Positions 9,174 to 23,208 of a DNA stretch of 64,000 nt are shown piece after piece; position 1 is the stretch's first letter, and every line of letters starts with the position of its first letter. The stretch spans positions 474-64,473 of the forward strand of contig DATDXC010000002.1 in assembly GCA_035289425.1 (NCBI GenBank). Direction: 5' to 3'. Both the position numbers and the translations under genes were made by a program. The notes below the pieces were generated by a model. That model made no database searches, was not told where the DNA came from, and saw only the letters and a program-made list of their open reading frames with translations. The DNA comes from Candidatus Nanoarchaeia archaeon. GTDB lineage: Archaea; Nanobdellota; Nanobdellia; Woesearchaeales; DATDXC01.

Positions 9174-10325
9174 ATGGCATATAAGATAACCAGCGAAAGT
9201 GTGACCGAAGGGCATCCTGATAAGATTTGCGACCAGATAAGTGATGCAATCCTTGATGCGCTGATACGGGAAGACCCTGAGAGCAGGGTTGCTGTAGAGT
9301 GCCTTACCACGACAGGCACCGTGCACGTAGCCGGAGAAATAACCACCAAAGCCTATGCTGATGTACAGCTTATAGTCAGGAATACACTAAAAGAAATCGG
9401 ATATACTGATCCTGAATTTGGCATTGACTATGAAGATGCGGGTGTCTGGGTAAGCGTGCATGGCCAGAGCCCTGACATTGCCCAGGGTGTTGATGAAAAA
9501 GAGGATAAGGATCAGGGTGCAGGAGACCAGGGAATGATGTATGGGTATGCCACTGATGAAACACCTGAACTGATGCCCCTGCCGATTATAATTGCGCACA
9601 AGCTGACCATGCGCATGGCATATGTGAGAAAAATGGGCATCATCAAAGACATAGGTCCTGACGGAAAATCACAGGTTACTGTTTTGTATGAGGGTGGCAA
9701 GCCGGTAAAGATAACTGACATCGTCATTGCCCAGCAGCATACCGATGGCACTAAAGAAGAAGAGCTGAAGAAGCAAATTATTAAGCAGGTCATACATCCT
9801 ATTTGCAAAGGCCTCATTGATGATGACACAAATATACACATCAATGCGACTGGAAAATTCGTTATTGGAGGACCGGAAGGGGATACTGGCGTTACCGGTC
9901 GGAAGATAATTGTGGATACCTATGGGGGCGTCGGCAGGCATGGCGGCGGCGCTTTCTCTGGAAAGGATCCCACCAAGGTGGACCGTTCAGGAGCATACAT
10001 GGCCCGGTATGTAGCCAAAAACATTGTCGCTGCAGGGCTGGCAAAGAAATGTGAAGTGCAGATAAGCTATGCGATAGGGGTTGCAAAGCCGACCAACATC
10101 AATGTTGACACATTCGGAACTGCAACAGTGCCTGAAGAGAAGATTGAGCAGGCTATTCTCAAAGTCTTTGACCTAAGGCCGAAGGCGATCATTGAAGCGT
10201 TGGACCTGAAGCGTCCGATCTACAAGAAAACAGCTGCCTACGGCCATTTCGGGAGGAATGATCCCGACTTTACCTGGGAGAAGACGGACAAAGCAGACAT
10301 ATTAAGAAAGGAAGCGGGAATTTAA
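9174..10325 (+). CDS. metK: S-adenosylmethionine synthetase (bacterial/eukaryal MetK type)
   Basis: Has '[23 protein letters not shown]', '[12 protein letters not shown]' and '[16 protein letters not shown]', the classical MetK signature motifs. A GGAGG Shine-Dalgarno sequence lies 7 nt upstream. Confidence 0.9.
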
Positions 10326-10409: not shown

Positions 10410-11537
10410 ATGAATAAAACCATTATTGTAATACTATTTATCCTTTCGATAAGTCTTGTTTCTGCGCAGGAAATTTGCGAGTATAACGGCGTTAAAACAA
10501 CATTTGGCACCCTTTATTATGGATCTGGGGTAAAATCAGAATATGCTGATGAAAAATTTGTGCATATTGTTGACCCAAAAGCTATTACTGATTTAAGGCA
10601 GTTAAAAGGATTAATATGCTTAGAGCATGCTGATTTTTATAATCAGGGCATCTCCGGAAATCTTGAAAATTTGAATGATTTAGCCAATCTAAAAGTTTTA
10701 AGCCTGCATACAAATCCCGACGTTGAGGGAGATGTATGCGATTTTAGCAAAGCAATTAAATTAAAAAGCCTGAAATTAGCCTTTGACCCTAAAGTGCACG
10801 GCGATGTTTCCTGCCTCAAAAACATTAATTTAGAAACTTTTGCTATGACTTACACAAACATTTCAGGAAATCTTTCTGGCCTGAGCCACATGACTAACTT
10901 AAAAGCACTTTATTTGAGCGGAGCGGGCATTAGTGGTGATGTCTCTGCCTTAAGCGTATTAACTAACCTAGAAGAATTGTCTTTATCTAATGCAGAAATG
11001 GATGGTTCTAAATTTTATGGAGATTTGGCTTCCCTTGACAACCTAAAAAAATTGAGAAAGGTTGCTCTGTATAACCTAAATTCGATTAATTGCGAACATT
11101 TCCATGAAATGCACCCTAACATTGAAGGCGGCTGCTCTGAAGAGTCAAAGTATACGTTAACAGACCCTAATATGGAGTCTGAAAAGATGATTGAAAAAGA
11201 AAGTATACCCGCAGATATTGCAAAAGACGGGGAGCCAAGAGTTGGTGATGAGCCTCCAAAAGAATGCATGATAGATGGAAAGTTTATTGGAGAAGATAAG
11301 TGCCCGGCTTTGGTTGATAAAGGACTGATTGAAGGGCAGAATAATGGACCTCCTGAAAAATGCATAATAGATGGAGATTTTATCGGTAGAGAAAGATGCG
11401 AAGCATTGATGCAGGGAAAGATTAAAGATGCTGAGCAGGAAGTGGAAGAAAAAATTACCGAAACAGAGACTAATGAAAATGTAAAAAGAAGTTTTTTGGA
11501 AAGATTTGTTGATTGGTTTGTCAGTTTATTTAAATAA
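10410..11537 (+). CDS. secreted leucine-rich-repeat protein with C-terminal tandem Cys-containing repeats
   Basis: Starts with the signal peptide 'MNKTIIVILFILSISLVSAQE'. Internalin-like LRRs follow ('LSHMTNLKALYLSGAGISGDVSALSVLTNLEELSLS'). Two ~28 aa repeats are present ('KECMIDGKFIGEDKCPALV' and 'EKCIIDGDFIGRERCEALM'). Confidence 0.6.
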   Translation: MNKTIIVILFILSISLVSAQEICEYNGVKTTFGTLYYGSGVKSEYADEKFVHIVDPKAITDLRQLKGLICLEHADFYNQGISGNLENLNDLANLKVLSLHTNPDVEGDVCDFSKAIKLKSLKLAFDPKVHGDVSCLKNINLETFAMTYTNISGNLSGLSHMTNLKALYLSGAGISGDVSALSVLTNLEELSLSNAEMDGSKFYGDLASLDNLKKLRKVALYNLNSINCEHFHEMHPNIEGGCSEESKYTLTDPNMESEKMIEKESIPADIAKDGEPRVGDEPPKECMIDGKFIGEDKCPALVDKGLIEGQNNGPPEKCIIDGDFIGRERCEALMQGKIKDAEQEVEEKITETETNENVKRSFLERFVDWFVSLFK

Positions 11538-11747: not shown

Positions 11748-12749
11748 CTAAGCTTCTGCATCAAGATACACCTTGACATCGGCTTTTGACAGCAACTCAG
11801 CAACATATTCAGATAATGCCTGCTTTCTTTTCTGAGACAGCAATGCCTCTTCAATCTGGTCTCTCACTTCATCAAAATTTAATTTTCTCGCTTCTTCTTT
11901 TGCAGTAAGCTGGATTATGTGATACCCATATTGTGTCTGGATTGGTTCGGAGGTATAATCTCCAACTTCAGCAAGAGCAAAAGCAGCAGTCTCAAACTCC
12001 GGAACCATCATGCCCTTGCCAATAAAACCGAGGTCTCCACCACTGGCTGCACTGCCATCTATGGAATATTTCTGGGTAAGCTGTGAGAAGTTCTCTCCTA
12101 CATCCAGGGCGTCTATGATCTCTTCAGCAAAACTTAGATTACTTACCAGGATATGGCTTGCCCGTATTTGGTCCTCAACCCTGAACGAATCAATATTTTG
12201 GTTGTAGTATTCAAGGGCTTCCTCAGACCACAGTGTGACTTTGCTATACACGGTCTGATTAACAAATCCGGAAATGACACCCTGTTCTGCGTTGAACTGG
12301 ATGAAATATTCATAATCAAAGCTTTCATTCTCGAACCTTTTTTTGAATGTATCCACATCGCTGCCAGTAGCAGTGATCAGGCTTTCGAAATAGCCTTTTG
12401 TTTGAGCGGTGTTCACTTGCTGGCCTGCATTTAAGGCCTCTTCCAGCACCAATTCACGTATGATAGTCTGATTCAAAAGATCTTTCTTGGAGACGGACGC
12501 AGCATAGGATTTTGGGACACCCTGCTGAAATAACACAAAATCAATATTACGGTTGAGTTCAGAGTCAGTTATAGTATGCCCATTTACCTCGGCAACCACG
12601 GGTGAGGCTTGTCGAGCAAAATCTAAACCGTTCGTTGCAAGAATGAGGAGAATGATTGCAATAATGCCTCCCCCCATCAACAGATGTTTTTTCTGAAGTG
12701 TTATATCTCCAGCATCGTCTTTCTTCTGTTCTTTTTTTCCTTCCATCAT
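11748..12749 (-). CDS. parvulin-type peptidyl-prolyl isomerase (PrsA/SurA-like) with an N-terminal membrane anchor
   Basis: Has an N-terminal TM segment 'LLMGGGIIAIILLILATNG'. The C-terminal PpiC domain shows 'RASHILV', 'GGDLGFIGKGMMVPEFETAAFAL' and 'GYHIIQL'. Confidence 0.7.
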   Translation of the reverse strand: MMEGKKEQKKDDAGDITLQKKHLLMGGGIIAIILLILATNGLDFARQASPVVAEVNGHTITDSELNRNIDFVLFQQGVPKSYAASVSKKDLLNQTIIRELVLEEALNAGQQVNTAQTKGYFESLITATGSDVDTFKKRFENESFDYEYFIQFNAEQGVISGFVNQTVYSKVTLWSEEALEYYNQNIDSFRVEDQIRASHILVSNLSFAEEIIDALDVGENFSQLTQKYSIDGSAASGGDLGFIGKGMMVPEFETAAFALAEVGDYTSEPIQTQYGYHIIQLTAKEEARKLNFDEVRDQIEEALLSQKRKQALSEYVAELLSKADVKVYLDAEA

Positions 12750-12864: not shown

Positions 12865-13248
12865 TTATATAACCTTATTTTGAATCAGATACGGCAAAAT
12901 CTTGTTTTTTATTGCAGGAGAAAGTATCGAAGTGTCATCTTTTTGCCCAAACCATCTGAACTCAACAATCTCTGACAGAGCCTGGACATCTCCCACAAGT
13001 TTTCCAGAATATAATTTTATCCTTACTGTCGTGTCAGTTCCCACCGCCTTATCTTCAAAATAGCCGATACATGAGATTTCATCAACCTTGCACCCATGTT
13101 CTTCCTTAATCTCCCTTTTGATACAGTCTATATCGCTTTCATTAGGCAGTGGCTTGCCGCCTGGCATTAGAAAAAGCGGCGCTGATTTCTTTTTGTTTAT
13201 GAGAAACTTTTTGTCTTGTATAGCCAGTAACCCAATCTTGTAAATCAT
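12865..13248 (-). CDS. Nudix hydrolase
   Basis: The Nudix box 'GGKPLPNESDIDCIKREIKEEHGCKV' fits the GX5EX7REUXEEXGU pattern. Confidence 0.7.
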   Translation of the reverse strand: MIYKIGLLAIQDKKFLINKKKSAPLFLMPGGKPLPNESDIDCIKREIKEEHGCKVDEISCIGYFEDKAVGTDTTVRIKLYSGKLVGDVQALSEIVEFRWFGQKDDTSILSPAIKNKILPYLIQNKVI

Positions 13249-15443
13249 GCGACTCCCCTGTCAAAATTTCCCTGGGTTGTCCCTTTTTTTAACATCGAAA
13301 TGTCCTGTTGCTTCTCCTCAATAATATTCTGGTACGCAGTAATTAAAGTGCTCGTATCCTTGGATAAGTCAAGGAGGAAATAACGGATCCCACCCTGCAG
13401 CAATTCCCGGACACCTTCAAAAGTGGCGATCGGCCTGGAATAGAGCATCTCAGTGTTCTTGCCGACAAGCCGCAGTGGAAAAGAATAGCCTTTCTCATCT
13501 TTAAGATCAGGATAGTTAAACCTGCCTTTGAAATGCATAACCGGGATTTGCCCATGTGCATAATAGATGATGTTCTTATTTTTTAGAGCAAGAACATCTT
13601 TGCACGAAAGCTCCGGAGATATTATGGGTAGGATACCTTTATTCAGCAAAGCAGAAATGCTCGCATCATTGAATGTGTTGAGGGAATATTTGCCATGTTT
13701 CTCCCCTTTAAAGGGCACGGAAAGCATTCCCCAATTCCCGATGCAGATACCCTCTGGCATAAGTTCATGGATTACATGCCCTGCTCTGATGACCTCTGCG
13801 TCACTCATTACAACAGGGGTATCCAGGAAAAATTTTGTGCCTATGCATAATTTCCGGGCCATCTTCACGTCAGGCGCAAATATATCATAGTATACAGCAT
13901 ACGGACCGAGTGCAGATGCTTCTTCAACCTGATCTAATGAATACACCTTGACAATCAACTTAGGTTCTCCATGGCATTCAATGCTCTCAAACTGTATTTC
14001 TTCTAGCTTAGATTGCCTCTGAGGGTTTATATGCTGTATGACTGCTTCATCGAGAGACAATCGCATCTGGTTGATTTCGCTGAATGGCATGAATGCTGCT
14101 GGATCAACCGAGAAAGACAGGAGCTTCCATTGTATCCCCACCTTTTTTGATTTTGCGAGGTAATTGAGCAGATCCTCCTTGGTGAATGGATTATTTTTTG
14201 CTTTTTCCAGATTGCATTTGGATGAAACAGATATATTTCCGCACCGCAATACAAGCGGCTTTCCCATCTCCCCTTCAGCTATAACCTCATATTCAGCAAG
14301 TGGAACGTCGAATGTTTGCTTCTCATGCTTCCGAGAGGTAATAAATACGGATGCACCTTCCCTGAAATGCCGTGATGGTATGCTAATCAAGCTCCCCCTC
14401 GGTGCATAATCATTTAAAACGCCATTAACCTGCATCTTGCTTACTACAAATCCTTCCATGCGGTTGCTGCCCTGATTCCAGAATCCGACACCATCTCCCT
14501 TCTTAAGAAGCTCGTAAATGCGGAGCTTGCCGTTTAGTACCTTTCCTAATAAAATTCCCCTATTCATGGGCATATCAGATCCTATGACTGATTTATTATT
14601 TGCAAAAAAGCCAGAGGTAAAATCCCGGTTGAAGTTAATTTTGACTCTATCTAGGTCTGCCTGGTTTGCCTTGGAAGCAGAAGGCAGGCTGTCAATCTGC
14701 TTTCGGTATAGCTTTGTGGCTGCAGCAACATACTCCGCACTCTTCATTCTGCCCTCTATTTTTACCGCATCTACACCAATCTCGGCTATCTTATCGACCC
14801 AGTTCGCCAGCATAAGGTCTTTAGGGCTGATCAGGTATCCTGCGTTGTTATACTGCTTCCGGCAGCTGCTGGCGCAAATCCCCCTATTGCCGCTTCGTTT
14901 CCCGATGAACGAAGAGATAAGGCATTGGCCTGAATATGAGATGCACAGATGGCCATGCACAAAAATCTCTAGTTTTACCTTAGTCCTGTTTCGTATCTCC
15001 CTAATATCATCCAGAGTTAATTCCCGTGCCAGCACAACCTGGTCTAAATCCCGGAATGCGTTGATACCATGGTAATTCATGAGGCTTGCCTGCGTAGATG
15101 CATGTATCCGGAGCCCTGGAAAGAACTTTCTGATGTAGGGAACGAAAAAGAGCTCCTGGATGATTACTGCATCTATTCCTGCAAGATATGCATCCTCCAA
15201 AGTCTTAAACCAATTCCCAATTTCCCTGTTATAAACCAGAGTATTCAAAGCAAAGTAGACCTTTACCTTGTTGTTGTGGGCAAGAGCTATTACTTCTTTT
15301 ATCTGGTCTTTAGTGAAGTTACCGGCTAGCTTCCGGGCATTGAACAGATGTCCTGATAAGTAGATTGCATCAGCCCCCGAGCAGATTGCCGCCTTGGTTG
15401 ATTCAAGGTCTCCTGCAGGAGCATTGAGTTCAATTTGGTGCAT
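13245..15443 (-). CDS. peptidase U32 family protein (RlhA/TrhP-like) with a long C-terminal extension
   Basis: The N-terminal region shows 'ELNAPAGDLESTKAAICSGADAIYLSG', 'KVYFALN' and 'GIDAVIIQ', the characteristic U32 motifs. The Cys cluster 'CISYSGQCL...CASSC' is present. Total length is 732 aa. Confidence 0.8.
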   Translation of the reverse strand: MHQIELNAPAGDLESTKAAICSGADAIYLSGHLFNARKLAGNFTKDQIKEVIALAHNNKVKVYFALNTLVYNREIGNWFKTLEDAYLAGIDAVIIQELFFVPYIRKFFPGLRIHASTQASLMNYHGINAFRDLDQVVLARELTLDDIREIRNRTKVKLEIFVHGHLCISYSGQCLISSFIGKRSGNRGICASSCRKQYNNAGYLISPKDLMLANWVDKIAEIGVDAVKIEGRMKSAEYVAAATKLYRKQIDSLPSASKANQADLDRVKINFNRDFTSGFFANNKSVIGSDMPMNRGILLGKVLNGKLRIYELLKKGDGVGFWNQGSNRMEGFVVSKMQVNGVLNDYAPRGSLISIPSRHFREGASVFITSRKHEKQTFDVPLAEYEVIAEGEMGKPLVLRCGNISVSSKCNLEKAKNNPFTKEDLLNYLAKSKKVGIQWKLLSFSVDPAAFMPFSEINQMRLSLDEAVIQHINPQRQSKLEEIQFESIECHGEPKLIVKVYSLDQVEEASALGPYAVYYDIFAPDVKMARKLCIGTKFFLDTPVVMSDAEVIRAGHVIHELMPEGICIGNWGMLSVPFKGEKHGKYSLNTFNDASISALLNKGILPIISPELSCKDVLALKNKNIIYYAHGQIPVMHFKGRFNYPDLKDEKGYSFPLRLVGKNTEMLYSRPIATFEGVRELLQGGIRYFLLDLSKDTSTLITAYQNIIEEKQQDISMLKKGTTQGNFDRGVA

Positions 15444-17205: not shown

Positions 17206-17348
17206 ATCGAAAAGGTTGCCATCCTATGTGAAGTGCCTCAGATAACAATACCAACTGACAATGGGGAGGCTCCAGTCGGGAAATGTCAGTATTTGTCTGG
17301 AAGATACAAGCACTGAGCCTGATGGCAACCTGCGAAGCACTTTTCAAT
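17206..17348. ncRNA. candidate structured ncRNA (copy B of a repeated element; strand undetermined)
   Basis: Nested helices are present. The 10-bp helix GGTTGCCATC/GATGGCAACC (17214-17223 with 17321-17330) is perfect. An outer helix ATCGAAAAG/CTTTTCAAT and a core hairpin AACTGACA...TGTCAGT enclose 'ATGGGGAGGCTCCAGTCGGGAAA'. The core is ~80% identical to the element at 23277-23443. Confidence 0.35.
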
Positions 17349-17418
17349 GTCACCTTATACAGAGTAGCATTTTAGCTATTATGCAACAATTTCATATATA
17401 AAAAGAAAAAATTATTGA

Positions 17419-18066
17419 TTAAGCACAAGAGCCTTCTTCGTACCAGCTGGTGTTCCTATCTTCACAAGCAAAACACCCATTGATATAGGTCATATTTCTA
17501 TTGTTGCACACTGGTTGGCTTTCATTACTGCAATCATTAGGTCTGGGTCTTGGGCAGTGAGTTTTTTCAATCGATACATTTCCCGATGTGAAATTTGAAG
17601 CGATTGCAGTACACTCCTGCTTACATGATAACGAATCCTCAATTGCCGCTTTCTTGCAATTCAATTTATCATCCTGGCAAGTTCTGGTGCAATTTCTGTA
17701 ATCAGCATAGGATTCCTGTCTGTCAATGCCTTTCGCAGCAGAACAATTTCTTCTGCATTCCTGAATAAGATTATTTTTTTCCTGTTTGGTTAAATTTGAG
17801 GATAGATTAAGTTCACAGCCTGCTGTACAGCTATTAAAGGTATCCCGGTTGATTTGAGATAGATTCTTCCAATCTCCTCTGCATTCATTTCTGCATTCAA
17901 ATGAGACATCATTGCATGCTCTCATATCGAGCATCTTGTTTGTTGAGCAGTTTTTCTTGCATTCATTAAATATTTCTCTTTGTTCAGGGCTCAAACCATT
18001 TAAGGCTACTACAATTACAGATGCTAATGCTAATCCTAAGATGACCAATGATAGTTTTTTATTCAT
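17419..18066 (-). CDS. secreted cysteine-rich protein with many N-glycosylation sequons and a C-terminal Kazal-like domain
   Basis: The start is taken at the internal Met ('MNKKLSLVILGLALASVIVVA' signal peptide, preceded by GGGGGA). There are 10 N-x-S/T sequons and repeated 'ECxxNC' units. The C-terminus 'QPVCNNRNMTYINGCFAC' fits the Kazal core (PVC..DG.TY.N.C...AC). The called ORF extends to 18162. Confidence 0.55.
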   Translation of the reverse strand: MNKKLSLVILGLALASVIVVALNGLSPEQREIFNECKKNCSTNKMLDMRACNDVSFECRNECRGDWKNLSQINRDTFNSCTAGCELNLSSNLTKQEKNNLIQECRRNCSAAKGIDRQESYADYRNCTRTCQDDKLNCKKAAIEDSLSCKQECTAIASNFTSGNVSIEKTHCPRPRPNDCSNESQPVCNNRNMTYINGCFACEDRNTSWYEEGSCA

Positions 18067-18276
18067 ATAGATTCCCCCAAAGTTATGACTGGGAAGTGTA
18101 GAATCTTTATAAACATTCTCGAGTTTGGATATGTATATCAGACGAGAAATATTTTTAGTCACGTTTTAACGACAAACATCAGTTATTCTTTCATCTGCTT
18201 ATTGTATCTCCACTGCCCGAACAATACCCAATACAATGCAAATAAACCAATAACTAAAAGTATGAGGAGGAGACCA

Positions 18277-19323
18277 TTACTTGCCATTTTTCAATGCATC
18301 AACCAACTGCTTCATCTGATTCTTGGTGCCGATAGTTATCCTGATATAGCCATCCAGCATGGGATCAGAGCTTCGGTCCCTGACCAAAACCGCCTTCTCC
18401 CGCAGCAGAGCAACCACCTCCTTAGTTTTGCTGCCAAACTTTGCCAGAAAGAAATTTGCATCTGATGGTACAGTCTTAATTTTCATTTTTTTGAATTCTT
18501 CCAGCACATATCGCTTTCCATTCTCTATCTCTTTAGTATACCAGGTGATGTAATCCTTATCTCCCAATGCTGCAATGCCTGCAGCAACAGCAGCGCAGTT
18601 GACGCTATAAGGAGAAAGCGCCTTTCCGATAGATGCTATGTTTGCGCTATTTGACACTACATACCCTAACCGCAAGCCGCCCATGCCAAAAGCCTTGGAG
18701 AATGTTTGAGTGACGATCAGGTTATCATAGGTATCAATGAGATCCAAGCAGCTGTTGCCGCTGAATTGGTTGTAAGCCTCATCAATCATCACGATGCTAT
18801 TCCGCGCTTTCTCAAGGATGGCAATAATGTCTTTCCGTGTAATAGATGTTCCGGTGGGATTGTTTGGATTGCACAATATCACCAACTTCGTCTTAGGTGA
18901 GATCTTTTTCAAGACTTTCTGAGTAGGGAAAGAAAATGATTGGGTGTATAACACCTCAATAATCTTGGCAGCCGCAACCTGTGCGTAGAACTTGAACATC
19001 GCAAAGGTAGGCATCGGAATAATGACCTCATCCCCTTTGCCCACATAGGTCTGCATTATGACTGAGATAGCTTCATCAGTTGCATTGGTAGTCAAAACCT
19101 GTTCAACCGGCTTACCAAGATATCCAGCCAGGGTAGCACGTAATTTAGAATATTCTGGATATGATGCAATATCCTCATCCCTGAGATTTCTCAAAGCTTC
19201 CAGAACTTTTGGGCTTGGTCCTACCGTATTCTCATTGAAATCAAGCCTCAGCAGGCCTTTCCTGCCGCTTGTAGGCGGCTTGTATTCGTCCATCTCGGTA
19301 ACATTCTTCTTTGGTTCTATCAT
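18277..19323 (-). CDS. hisC: histidinol-phosphate aminotransferase
   Basis: Has 'LRLDFNENTVGPSP', 'LCNPNNPTG' and a PLP-lysine region 'TFSKAFGMGGLRLGY'. It is adjacent to hisD. Confidence 0.85.
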   Translation of the reverse strand: MIEPKKNVTEMDEYKPPTSGRKGLLRLDFNENTVGPSPKVLEALRNLRDEDIASYPEYSKLRATLAGYLGKPVEQVLTTNATDEAISVIMQTYVGKGDEVIIPMPTFAMFKFYAQVAAAKIIEVLYTQSFSFPTQKVLKKISPKTKLVILCNPNNPTGTSITRKDIIAILEKARNSIVMIDEAYNQFSGNSCLDLIDTYDNLIVTQTFSKAFGMGGLRLGYVVSNSANIASIGKALSPYSVNCAAVAAGIAALGDKDYITWYTKEIENGKRYVLEEFKKMKIKTVPSDANFFLAKFGSKTKEVVALLREKAVLVRDRSSDPMLDGYIRITIGTKNQMKQLVDALKNGK

Positions 19324-20555
19324 CTTGATTCTACAGACCTCGCGTGGGCTTCGAGCCCTTCAGCTCGTGCGATAACACAGATAGTTTTCTTCAATCCAGC
19401 CAATCCTCCCTTAGTGAGTTTCTGCACAGAGGGCATCTTGACAAAATCAAGAACCGATAATCCAGCTCTATAACGAGCTGCTCCTAAGGTGGGAAGCACA
19501 TGGCTCGGTCCTGCTGCATAGTCTCCTGCTGCCTCACAGCTGTATCTCCCTACAAAGATGGCACCGGCATTCTTTACTTTGCTCAGATATCTCTCTTCCA
19601 TCAGTTCAAGATGCTCGGGAGCTCTTTCATTTATGAAATCAAAGGCTTCGTCAACATTCTGCGCAATAACGATAGCGCTATTTTTCCGTATAGATTCAGC
19701 CGCAATATCCTTGGTAGGTAGTTTCCTAAGTTGTTTCTGCAATTCGGCTTCAACAGAAGAAGCTAGTTTTCTGTTGGTCGTTACTAAAATTGCTGATGCC
19801 ATTCTATCGTGTTCAGCTTGTGCCAGCATATCAGCTGCAATCATTGCCGGATCCCCCCTCCCTGCAAATATCATGATTTCAGTTGGTCCTGCAATGAAAT
19901 CCACACCAACATCTCCATATACTAATTTTTTTGCTGCGGTAACATATATGTTGCCTGGACCAACAATTTTATCCACCTTAGGTATGGTCTGTGTCCCATA
20001 CGCCATTGCAGCAATAGCCTGAGCTCCGCCAACTTTGTAGATTGCTGATGCTCCGGCGATATCAGCTGCAACGAGAATTGCGTAGTTGCCTGGCTTAGGA
20101 GGGCTGCAGAGGACGATCTCTCTGACTCCTGCAACTTTGGCCGGAATGACTGTCATCAGGACAGTAGAAGGTAATGGATATGCTCCGGCAGGCACATAAC
20201 AGCCGACCCTATCCAGCGGAATGACCTGCTGTCCAACCGTAACCCCTTTCCGGATTGTGGTCATCCATGATTTAGGCATTTGCTTTTGCGCATAACTTCG
20301 GATATTCTTTGCAGCATCTAAGAGAGCCCGTACCACCTTAGCATCAGTCTTGGCATACGCTTCCTTGATCTCCTTCGGCGAGACTTTCATAGTATTTTTT
20401 GATAGGTTAAAACCATCATACAATTTAGTGTACTTGATCACTGCCGAATCGCCAAAGGTCTTTACTTCAGAAACAACCGGTTTTATCCTTACGAGTATGT
20501 CGTTGAGGGCAATGCCTTTGTTTTTAACAGAAAAATCTTTGCAGGTTGTTATCAT
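19320..20555 (-). CDS. hisD: histidinol dehydrogenase
   Basis: Has '[16 protein letters not shown]', '[29 protein letters not shown]' and 'AQAEHD', the signature HisD motifs. Length is 411 aa. Confidence 0.9.
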
Positions 20556-21418
20556 GGTATTACCTTGTTAAGGGGATATTCAACAATACCAGAAGCTCCT
20601 GCATCCTTGAGCTGAGGAATCAAGTCTCTCACAACCTTCTCATCTATAATAGTGTTCACATCAACCCAGCTCGGATCAGAAAGCTCGGAAATGGTTGGCT
20701 TCTGCAGGGCAGGAAGTGCCTTAAGGACTTTATCAAGATCCTTCTTCCGCACATTCATCATAAGGCCGACTTTTTCTTCTGCATTGATAGCTCCTTGCAA
20801 CAGCATGGCAATATTTTTTATTTTCTTCTGCTTTGCAGCATCCTTCCATGACCCCTTGTTTGCGATGAGCCTGGTAGTTGATTCCAACAGTGTATCGATT
20901 ATCTTCAGATTATTGGCACGCAAACTTGAGCCGGTTTCAGTGATCTCCACAATAGCGTCAGCAAGTGTCGGAGGCTTTACTTCAGTGGCTCCCCATGAGA
21001 ATTCAACCTTTGCATCCACCTTATTCTTTTTCAAATACTTCTTGGTCAGGTTGACTGCCTCAGTCGCTATCCGTTTTCCCTGCAGATCCTTCACTGACCG
21101 AATGTTGCTGTTTTCAGGCGCAGCTAAAACCCACTTCACCTTCCCTAAACCCCTTTTAGCGTACACCAGATCTGCAACTTCAATGACATCAGAGCTGTTT
21201 TCCTCAATCCAGTCCTTGCCTGTTAGTCCACAATCAAGGACTCCTTCTTCAACATATCGGGACATTTCCTGGGCCCTGATGAGCATGCATGCTATCTGAG
21301 GATCATCTATCTCAGGAAAATAGCTTCGTCCATTGATGTCTATGCTGAATCCTGCTTTCTTGAACAGCTTGACCGTACTATCCTGTAAACTGCCCTTGGG
21401 TATGCCTAGTTTTATCAT
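20552..21418 (-). CDS. hisG: ATP phosphoribosyltransferase (long form)
   Basis: Starts with '[12 protein letters not shown]' and contains '[12 protein letters not shown]' and '[14 protein letters not shown]', with a C-terminal regulatory domain. Length is 288 aa. Confidence 0.85.
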
Positions 21419-22605: not shown

Positions 22606-23208
22606 ATGACACATGAAGTACCTAAGTTGCCATATGCATATAATGCCTTAGAGCCATACATAGATGAGAAAACCATGATGATACATCATGATAAGCACCA
22701 TGCTGCCTATGTGGCTAAACTTAATGCAGCGCTGGAAAAGCACTCAAATCTCCAGAACAGGCCAGCAGAAGACCTGCTTAAGGATCTTTCTGCAATACCT
22801 GAAGATATCAGGACCGCTATAAAGAATCATGGCGGCGGCCATGCGAACCATTCGTTTTTCTGGGCTTTGCTGAAGAAGGATGTGAAGTGCAGCGGTGAGA
22901 TTGAAAAAGCCATAACTAAGACATTTGGCGGTTTTGATAAGTTCAAGGAGCAGTTTTCAGCTGCTGCAGCAAACCAGTTCGGCTCTGGCTGGGCATGGCT
23001 TGTTGCCAATAAGGGAAAGCTTGAAATAATTTCCACACCAAACCAAGACTCGCCATTGAGTCAGGGAAAAACGCCTATTGTAGGCATTGATGTATGGGAG
23101 CATGCGTACTATCTGAAATATCAGAACAGAAGGCCCGAGTACATCGAAGCATTCTTCAACGTAATCAATTGGGATAAGGTCAATGAGAACCTGAAGAAAG
23201 CAAAATAA
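22606..23208 (+). CDS. sod: Fe/Mn superoxide dismutase
   Basis: Has '[32 protein letters not shown]' and '[15 protein letters not shown]', the canonical SOD motifs. Confidence 0.9.

Follow-up and report, generated by a model that had tools for sequence, protein, structure and literature searches.

A Kazal-type domain behind a predicted disulfide-laddered helical hairpin in a DPANN-type archaeal genome

The DNA analysed here, referred to as the window, is a stretch of 64,000 nucleotides from a Candidatus Nanoarchaeia archaeon of the Woesearchaeales (GenBank assembly GCA_035289425.1, contig DATDXC010000002.1, positions 474 to 64,473 of the forward strand). Next to hisC, its minus strand carries a gene for a small cysteine-rich protein, in which an N-terminal leader is followed by a predicted disulfide-laddered helical hairpin, a short linker and a C-terminal Kazal-type domain. 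On balance we favour the reading that this protein is a secreted, glycosylated serine-protease inhibitor mounted on a rigid stalk. What is new in this case is the laddered hairpin as a scaffold, joined to a Kazal domain here and to other heads in related proteins. An initial annotation made from the sequence had described a secreted, sequon-bearing protein with a Kazal-like end; our analysis confirms that observation in part and lends partial support to its interpretation.

Two modules of one small protein

To the initial annotation the C-terminal end, 'QPVCNNRNMTYINGCFAC', had looked like a Kazal core, and this identity holds at the level of the family. The end lies inside residues 179-201, CSNESQPVCNNRNMTYINGCFAC, which match the PROSITE Kazal pattern (PS00282: C-x(4)-{C}-x(2)-C-x-{A}-x(4)-Y-x(3)-C-x(2,3)-C) exactly, and none of the six Kazal cysteines varies across 8 homologous domains. 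Used as a profile (A3), eight orthologous C-terminal domains retrieved 44 Kazal chains from the PDB at E<=0.01, with 6kbr_C as the best match (E=2.1e-6) and ovomucoid at 3.4e-6; SPINK1/2/5 and LDTI were also among the matches (E=2e-6 to 1e-3), and RECK appeared too. Kazal_1 was matched by all eight domains (best E=1.4e-8), and precomputed Kazal_1 matches exist for the homologues P0005 and P0151. When the profile of a full-length pair (A1) was used in an exhaustive search, 256 proteins were found at E<=0.001, chiefly prokaryotic proteins with single or multiple Kazal domains that matched via the C-terminal part. These sequence comparisons identify the C-terminal module, at family level, as a genuine Kazal-type domain.

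With Kazal inhibitors (PF00050/PF07648, MEROPS I1; turkey ovomucoid third domain, bacterial secreted proteins and lipoproteins) the domain shares the framework C-x7-C-x7-C-x6-Y-x3-C-x2-C-x12-C, the P-V-C, T-Y and N-x-C motifs, and the P15' Asn, which is N196 here and invariant in the family. The segment between the fifth and sixth cysteines is shorter, with 12 residues versus 17 in ovomucoid. A C-x-x-P-R-P-x-x-C lead-in and a W-Y-x-x-G-x-C ending are common to the window domain and to small, presumably bacterial Kazal proteins (prokaryotic matches P0020, P0026, P0027 and P0043), and several small prokaryotic Kazal proteins with this lead-in and ending carry lipobox-like leaders. The other Kazal matches lack the fusion behind a 136-residue laddered hairpin that the window protein has, in an archaeal host. 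That Kazal domains are rare in archaea, as the initial annotation remarked, is in line with the literature: Kazal is among the ECOD groups that occur within archaea only in DPANN, mostly as singletons (PMC13607799), and arCOG10350 holds a Kazal entry in a sponge thaumarchaeon (PMC6697440). The domain is uncommon in archaea, yet already catalogued.

The remainder of the mature protein had been taken for a single domain of ~190 residues with over 30 cysteines in 'repeated ECxxNC units'. It is indeed very rich in cysteine, but the count for the whole 215-residue protein is 20, and there are two modules with a linker between them. In place of the proposed repeats, the first module contains six CxxxC motifs (1.3 expected from the shuffled mature sequence, P=0.0005) and two single cysteines, arranged as one long helical hairpin. 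Its 14 cysteines, between residues 36 and 152, form seven mirror pairs, all with i+j=188, whereas no more than five such pairs arose in any of 5,000 shuffles. Because all 14 fall into mirror-symmetric pairs, we predict a seven-rung disulfide ladder (Table 1), an assignment that extends to the exact disulfide map only as a prediction. Within each half the cysteines share a single helix face (resultant 0.96 for a period of 3.67 residues per turn, versus 0.90 for the random 99.9th percentile). An AlphaFold2 model built from a 12-sequence alignment gave uninterrupted helices at residues 27-82 and 94-157, with a predicted local distance difference test score (pLDDT) of 80-96 over most of them; for the whole model the mean pLDDT was 79.6 and the predicted template modelling score (pTM) 0.58.

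Homologues gain and lose these cysteines in pairs, which supports the seven-rung ladder. The pair 69/119, again with a sum of 188, was gained jointly in P0002, P0004, P0005 and P0008, and P0151 also has eight symmetric pairs; Cys 58/130 were jointly lost in P0002, and Cys 51/137 in P0033. Of 20 family members, 12 have all their cysteines in perfectly symmetric pairs, the remaining ones have five basal and three distal pairs with a register shift of 1-2 residues, and the cysteine count is even in all 20. The short member P0135 has only five basal rungs and an 8-residue loop. A topology of three short CxxxC hairpins (36-62, 80-108 and 126-152) was rejected: the joint loss of 58/130 in P0002 would strand C40 and C148, and this topology is contradicted both by the continuous helices of the AlphaFold2 model and by P0135, which keeps exactly five basal rungs.

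A hairpin profile derived from alignment A4 matched the window protein in hmmsearch at E=2.9e-40, with 22 cluster representatives among the retrieved proteins. The window protein carries the signature of this family: a Sec leader, [ED]-[QE]-[RK], mirror-symmetric CxxxC motifs and single cysteines on two long helices, and an even cysteine count. No Pfam family matched the hairpin in the window protein or in ten other members, a search of NCBIfam gave no meaningful match, and in the literature we found no description of a disulfide-ladder hairpin in archaea or DPANN. From sequence and model, the hairpin is apparently a rod-like module not previously described, which would be stapled by seven disulfides.

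Two long antiparallel helices are also the shape of colicin receptor-binding domains, LXG/Lap helical partners and trypanosome ISG75, the top Foldseek matches (E 0.1 or worse, identity 7-18%), and we know of none among them that has been described with such a disulfide ladder. The principle of antiparallel helices stapled by CxxxC motifs is that of the twin-CX3C small Tim and twin-CX9C CHCH proteins. These proteins and the alpha-hairpinins have 2-3 disulfides and helices of ~10-20 residues, whereas the window family has 7-8 rungs and helices of ~56-64 residues; unlike them, its hairpin is archaeal, predicted to be extracellular, probably glycosylated and the N-terminal module of larger proteins. 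No small Tim (PF02953) or CHCH model of Pfam matched the window protein even at E<=10, or any of ten other members at E<=0.01. Alpha-hairpinins share the antiparallel helix-loop-helix with CxxxC disulfide staples, their motif being CX3CX4-20CX3C (PMC11591084), and the reference list of that paper includes buckwheat and Veronica trypsin inhibitors of the helical-hairpin fold. The alpha-hairpinin criteria are a short peptide, a 4C or 6C CX3C-X(4-20)-CX3C arrangement and no more than 1-2 additional cysteines (PMC11591084). The segment C80xxxC84-x19-C104xxxC108, the innermost rungs, fits the 4C spacing and resembles a hairpinin staple in principle, but the module spreads 14 cysteines over 136 residues and does not come from a plant, and membership was rejected.

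At the N-terminus we found a hydrophobic Sec-type leader, which the initial annotation had called a signal peptide. A21 and G24 are conserved and followed by [LMI]-[TSN]-x-[ED]-Q (alignments A2 and A4). A lipobox leader and a class-III (pilin-like) leader were both ruled out, the lipobox Cys and the [KR]-[GA] motif being absent from the sequence. Signal-peptide cleavage is predicted after G24, and secretion of the protein is plausible. N-glycosylation is plausible as well, its basis being a statistical excess of sequons: the protein has 11 N-x-S/T sequons (the ten counted earlier fell one short) versus 3.5 +/- 1.6 expected, and 0 of 20,000 shuffles of the mature sequence reached 11. The four helix-borne sequon Asn that were measured, N39, N68, N107 and N125, point 100-116 degrees away from the cysteine seam. 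In the homologues the linker between the modules is longer, with 20-45 residues of N-x-S/T repeats (alignment A2); residues 161-165 are the segment of lowest pLDDT in the AlphaFold2 model.

Predicted reactive site and competing readings

The loop C179-S-N181-E-S-Q-P-V-C aligns with CTLEYRPLC of the ovomucoid third domain and gives Asn181 as the predicted P1 residue; Asn181 doubles as the acceptor of an N-E-S sequon. In the definition of Kazal contact residues P3 is the second Cys and P15' the conserved Asn (PMC1236909), and C179 and N196 occupy these two positions. P1 is Asp in five, Glu in two and Asn in two of the nine hairpin-Kazal domains (9/9), and a P1 Asn within a sequon is found in P0007 besides the window copy. 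The usual Kazal P1 is Met, Arg, Leu, Lys or Gln. The same search yielded 173 other prokaryotic Kazal domains, of which only 19 had Asp, Glu or Asn at P1 (Met 43, Arg 37, Gln 19, Ala 15, Glu 15, Leu 15, Lys 13, Asp 3, Asn 1). A P1 that is hypervariable in relatives and fixed as acidic or amide in the family points to a conserved, unusual target specificity. Because every family member has Asp, Glu or Asn at P1, the target would most likely be a secreted serine protease whose S1 pocket admits acidic or amide side chains. By analogy, our best guess for its class is subtilisin-like (S8). The best functional precedent for an acidic P1 is provided by EPI1 and EPI10 of Phytophthora infestans, secreted Kazal inhibitors of subtilisin-family proteases, in which P1=Asp matches the Asp-specific subtilase P69B that they inhibit (PMC7382257); EPI1 also inhibits subtilisin A tightly (PMC1236909). 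EPI1 and EPI10 differ from the window protein in being oomycete proteins with two or three Kazal domains and without a helical stalk, and EPI1a has two disulfides.

In the reading that we favour, the protein would be exported by the Sec pathway and then released by signal peptidase after Gly24, or tethered by its uncleaved leader. Two helices of ~56-64 residues would pack antiparallel, and seven disulfides, linking mirror-related CxxxC motifs and single cysteines of the two helices, would lock them along their whole length of roughly 8-9 nm. The sequon Asn lie ~100-115 degrees off the seam and in the tip loop, so that the exposed flanks would carry a coat of N-glycans, which may extend over the tip and the linker as well. 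The outcome would be a rigid stalk, resistant to protease and heat, from which a short N-x-S/T linker would lead into the six-Cys Kazal domain with its three disulfides, predicted in the 1-5/2-4/3-6 pattern (171-201, 179-198 and 187-214). This domain would act as a canonical (Laskowski-type), substrate-like inhibitor and insert the C179-S-N181-E-S loop into the active site of a serine protease.

Several points weigh against this reading. In the ovomucoid P1 series of Laskowski, Asn and Asp perform poorly at P1 against the classical test proteases, and a glycan on Asn181, if this residue is glycosylated, would block canonical insertion into a protease. Export cleavage, glycosylation and disulfides of the protein are predictions. 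Profile searches against Kazal families, which the initial annotation had suggested as a check, were significant for the family and left the window copy just under the Pfam cut-offs: the window protein scored 18.5 bits for Kazal_1 (cut-off 21) and 18.4 bits for Kazal_2 (cut-off 22.8), and the isolated domain 20.3 and 20.8 bits against the same cut-offs (E about 5e-4). Pfam E-values for the window copy ranged from 4e-4 to 2e-3 for these two families, and a single-sequence PDB search with it found ovomucoid at E about 0.1. A predicted structure, another of the checks suggested, did give two long helices and a Kazal-like C-terminal part (strands 168-170, 186-188 and 208-211, helix 197-202), the latter with a pLDDT of just 55-74. 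Foldseek of the whole model versus the PDB, a comparison in which the hairpin predominates, returned generic long helical hairpins alone, none of them significant at E 0.1 or worse. No serine protease gene was found among 31 window genes scanned, and the contigs of P0002, P0003, P0005, P0151, P0006 and P0074 have no neighbours in common with the window and hint at no target.

Some of these points fit a different role for the same architecture, namely that the Kazal domain is a non-inhibitory binding module (cf. agrin, SPARC and RECK) of a surface adhesin or recognition protein, in which the hairpin displays interchangeable heads. We consider this rather unlikely, while giving it more weight than any other alternative. 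Many DPANN live attached to hosts, and the his genes of the window are closest to those of Woesearchaeota, a DPANN lineage, so that the protein could belong to an episymbiotic DPANN archaeon. In other members the same hairpin is fused to quite different cysteine-rich modules without a Pfam match, or to none, the neighbourhood of the Kazal gene offers no protease partner, and P1 is a sequon Asn in both the window copy and P0007; glycosylation of Asn181 would favour this role. The framework of the loop is nevertheless that of a canonical inhibitor (P3 Cys, C-T-x-E-Y-like loop, P15' Asn, T-Y), the closest relatives are prokaryotic Kazal domains with the hypervariable P1 typical of true inhibitors, and the family-wide Asp, Glu or Asn at P1 looks like selection for S1-pocket specificity. 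These points argue against the binding-module role.

That the hairpin is itself the functional part, as a giant relative of the plant alpha-hairpinin antimicrobial peptides or trypsin inhibitors or as a structural envelope glycoprotein, with a Kazal domain that is accessory or shields the protein from proteolysis, appears quite improbable. A CxxxC...CxxxC helix-loop-helix is the defining alpha-hairpinin motif, and hairpin-only members exist (P0056, possibly P0009 and P0010), but P0014 and possibly other hairpin-only records may be shortened gene calls on short contigs. Alpha-hairpinins are plant peptides of ~30-50 residues with 2-3 disulfides, to which the hairpin has no sequence similarity and no Pfam match, and it is near-neutral (pI 7.5, 21 basic and 20 acidic residues), probably glycosylated, and neither cationic nor amphipathic. 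A chance open reading frame (ORF) or pseudogene with a fortuitous Kazal-like motif could account for the scarcity of close relatives: a word-index search of 5.8 billion proteins with the protein found an identical fragment and one 43% homologue only, scans of GTDB species genomes (with A1) and of JGI metagenome contigs found no relative, and the gene has a GC content slightly below that of its neighbours. Against this stand ~20 cluster representatives that share the domain and among which the cysteine framework is invariant, one distant member on a clearly archaeal contig (eIF2-alpha, Nop10, Nre, Kae1/TsaD), and the promoter-, Shine-Dalgarno- and terminator-like signals around the ORF. We assign this explanation a negligible probability, the conservation pattern in the sequences having effectively refuted it.

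Gene, family and genomic context

The minus-strand ORF ending at 17419, on which the initial annotation was based, is present in the ORF list as a frame of 247 aa (17419-18162) with GTG as its first codon at 18162. That start did not hold. From the sequences, the true start is almost certainly the ATG listed in Table 1, because TATA-like and Shine-Dalgarno-like elements fall between the GTG and this ATG, because every homologue opens with an equivalent M-[NK]-K-K (the encoded protein begins MNKKLSL when read from the ATG), and because the identical fragment P0001, from another assembly, is called from the same ATG. The product is predicted to be an exported stand-alone protein of ~21.7 kDa without glycans.

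Table 1. Features of the hairpin-Kazal gene and its protein in the window.
Feature	Residues	Positions	Strand	Details	Basis
Corrected coding sequence	1-215	17419..18066	(-)	215 aa; ATG at 18064-18066, TAA stop at 17419-17421	ORF list, homologues
Putative archaeal TATA-box-like element, TTTATAAA		18106..18113	(-)	~40 nt upstream of ATG	Read from sequence
Putative Shine-Dalgarno-like run, GGGGG		18074..18078	(-)	7 nt upstream of ATG	Read from sequence
Putative archaeal oligo-T terminator-like signal, TTTTTTCTTTTT run		17400..17411	(-)	Starts 8 nt past stop codon	Read from sequence
Leader, MNKKLSLVILGLALASVIVVALNG	1-24	17995..18066	(-)	Predicted Sec-type signal peptide or uncleaved signal anchor	Conservation in alignments A2, A4
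Predicted disulfide-laddered antiparallel helical hairpin	25-160	17587..17994	(-)	Helix 1 ~27-82; tip loop 83-93 with conserved N91-L-T93 sequon; helix 2 ~94-157	Cys symmetry, covariation, AlphaFold2
Predicted hairpin disulfides	36-152, 40-148, 51-137, 58-130, 62-126, 80-108, 84-104
Linker, NFTSGNVSIEKTH	158-170	17557..17595	(-)	Sequon-bearing	Alignment A2; homologue tails
Kazal-type domain	171-214	17425..17556	(-)	Cys 171, 179, 187, 198, 201, 214	PROSITE, Pfam, family profile
Predicted reactive-site loop P3-P3', C179-S-N181-E-S-Q184	179-184	17515..17532	(-)		Alignment to ovomucoid third domain CTLEYRPLC

The gene is bounded by spacers of 210 bp (after hisC) and 264 bp. Its GC content is 0.38, versus 0.42-0.46 in the neighbouring genes, and its GC at third codon positions (GC3) 0.35 versus 0.40-0.50. 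The presence of the TATA-like TTTATAAA box in the 210-bp spacer suggests a promoter of its own, and the gene looks like an independent accessory transcription unit placed between hisC and a TrmA-like methyltransferase gene. On another contig (ENA ERZ28563825 scaffold_86685, 1.1 kb, from another sample), positions ~380-1122 are 100% identical to the window (17300-18200) from the promoter through the codon of Cys171. Past that codon the DNA is unrelated and the ORF ends two codons on, the break lying exactly at the hairpin/Kazal boundary; either this contig is an assembly chimera or it represents a strain whose C-terminal module differs or is missing.

The word-index search repeated with an alignment of the N-terminal domain gave 4 matches, and the exhaustive profile search 10 or more diverged full-length homologues with 32-45% identity and an invariant cysteine framework. 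By these sequence comparisons the hairpin-Kazal family is small, rare and modular. Hairpin, N-x-S/T-rich linker and Kazal domain are combined in the window protein, P0002-P0008 and P0151, with P0034 as a variant, and the hairpin-only members have little or no C-terminal tail. Other members join the hairpin to cysteine-rich modules without a Pfam match, namely a 'GGLYQQLCKGPYFRL...' domain, a 'C-x-x-G-x-Y-x-x-G-x-x-F-x-x-x-C-N-x-C-x-C' module, and a 12-Cys tail in P0011. Differing cysteine-rich C-terminal modules, again without a Pfam match, were also seen in P0028, P0042, P0074 (contig L088, 2766-3710), P0085, P0094, P0033 and P0135. A conserved 'GGLYQQLCKGPYFRLxCS...YCxCxG' domain and a small 'CxxGxYxxGxxFxxxCNxCxCGYDG' module were among the C-terminal modules observed, and both appear to be further undescribed extracellular domains.

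The window is archaeal and encodes ribosomal protein S3Ae, TFIIB and subunits of an A-type ATP synthase. Its hisG, hisD and hisC are closest to those of Candidatus Woesearchaeota (72% and 71% identity for hisG, 59% for hisD and 46% for hisC; the next match for hisD is Iainarchaeum with 55%). The order hisG-hisD-hisC (window 18277-21418, minus strand) is the same in a Candidatus Woesearchaeota genome (contig L003, 5066-8216), with 46-71% protein identity. The gene after hisC in the closest Woesearchaeota genome encodes a HAD-type phosphatase, where the window has the Kazal gene, and this arrangement is consistent with a lineage-specific insertion of the Kazal gene beside hisC. No paralogues or cysteine-rich neighbours of the gene were found within the window, and ARAGORN detected no tRNA genes in the whole of it (1-64000).

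The initial annotation had linked the Kazal-like protein to a leucine-rich-repeat (LRR) protein encoded at 10410-11537 (plus strand) and had pointed to the neighbourhood of relatives as a check. That link was not borne out: the LRR gene is ~6 kb away on the opposite strand, the two have no sequence relationship or linkage and only predicted export in common, and no conserved or shared neighbourhood was found around any homologue. The LRR protein has a Sec leader, MNKTIIVILFILSISLVSAQ, and LRR_4 matches, and its C-terminal part contains two tandem copies of a 'PP[KE][EK]C[MI]IDG[KD]FIG[ER][DE][KR]C[PE]AL' motif. Five unrelated housekeeping genes separate the LRR and Kazal genes, among them those for a SurA-like peptidyl-prolyl isomerase (PPIase), a U32 peptidase-family protein, and SFM1-like and TrmA-like methyltransferases. 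The isomerase (11748-12749, minus strand) is a SurA-like parvulin (SurA_N and Rotamase) with an N-terminal transmembrane segment, a type of extracytoplasmic folding helper better known from bacteria and here found in an archaeal genome. The U32 protein (13245-15443, minus strand; 732 residues, peptidase family U32 and DUF3656) is the sole peptidase-family match near the Kazal gene; it was dismissed as a target of the Kazal domain, being no serine protease and presumably cytoplasmic. An S-adenosylmethionine synthetase at 9174-10325 (plus strand), with the S-AdoMet_synt N, M and C domains, belongs to the MetK type of bacteria and eukaryotes, not to the classical archaeal one. A Fe/Mn superoxide dismutase is encoded at 22606-23208 (plus strand). 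This gene is compatible with an oxygen-exposed habitat where extracellular disulfides form readily, and it suggests that the organism meets oxygen, which would fit a protein reliant on ten extracellular disulfides.

Implications for DPANN-type archaea

The sequences establish that the gene is real and conserved, where its modules begin and end, that its cysteine framework covaries, that the C-terminal module belongs to the Kazal family, which residues occupy P1, and that the context is archaeal. The family is tiny, and every functional role discussed here is one that we infer. A further-reaching proposal, which we regard as doubtful, is that the hairpin with its seven to eight rungs is a new extracellular scaffold, so far only on archaeal (DPANN-like) contigs, that serves as a rigid stalk coated in glycans for interchangeable cysteine-rich warheads, with the Kazal version, through its acidic or amide P1, directed against a subtilase of the host or the community. 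If this were true, the warheads would comprise the Kazal domain of the window protein and, in paralogous families, at least three modules that are unrelated to it and uncharacterised, and an episymbiotic archaeon would neutralise a specific subtilase at the cell-cell interface, as an archaeal counterpart of the oomycete EPI effectors. The hairpin, being small, modular and predicted to be hyper-stable, is of interest to structural biology and as a scaffold for engineering proteins. Archaeal protein inhibitors of proteases are poorly documented, and Kazal domains have hitherto been rare catalogue entries there. For DPANN-type archaea, a small conserved family with a distinctive Asp, Glu or Asn at P1 is a concrete candidate, be it for the control of extracellular proteases or for a part in interactions between host and symbiont.

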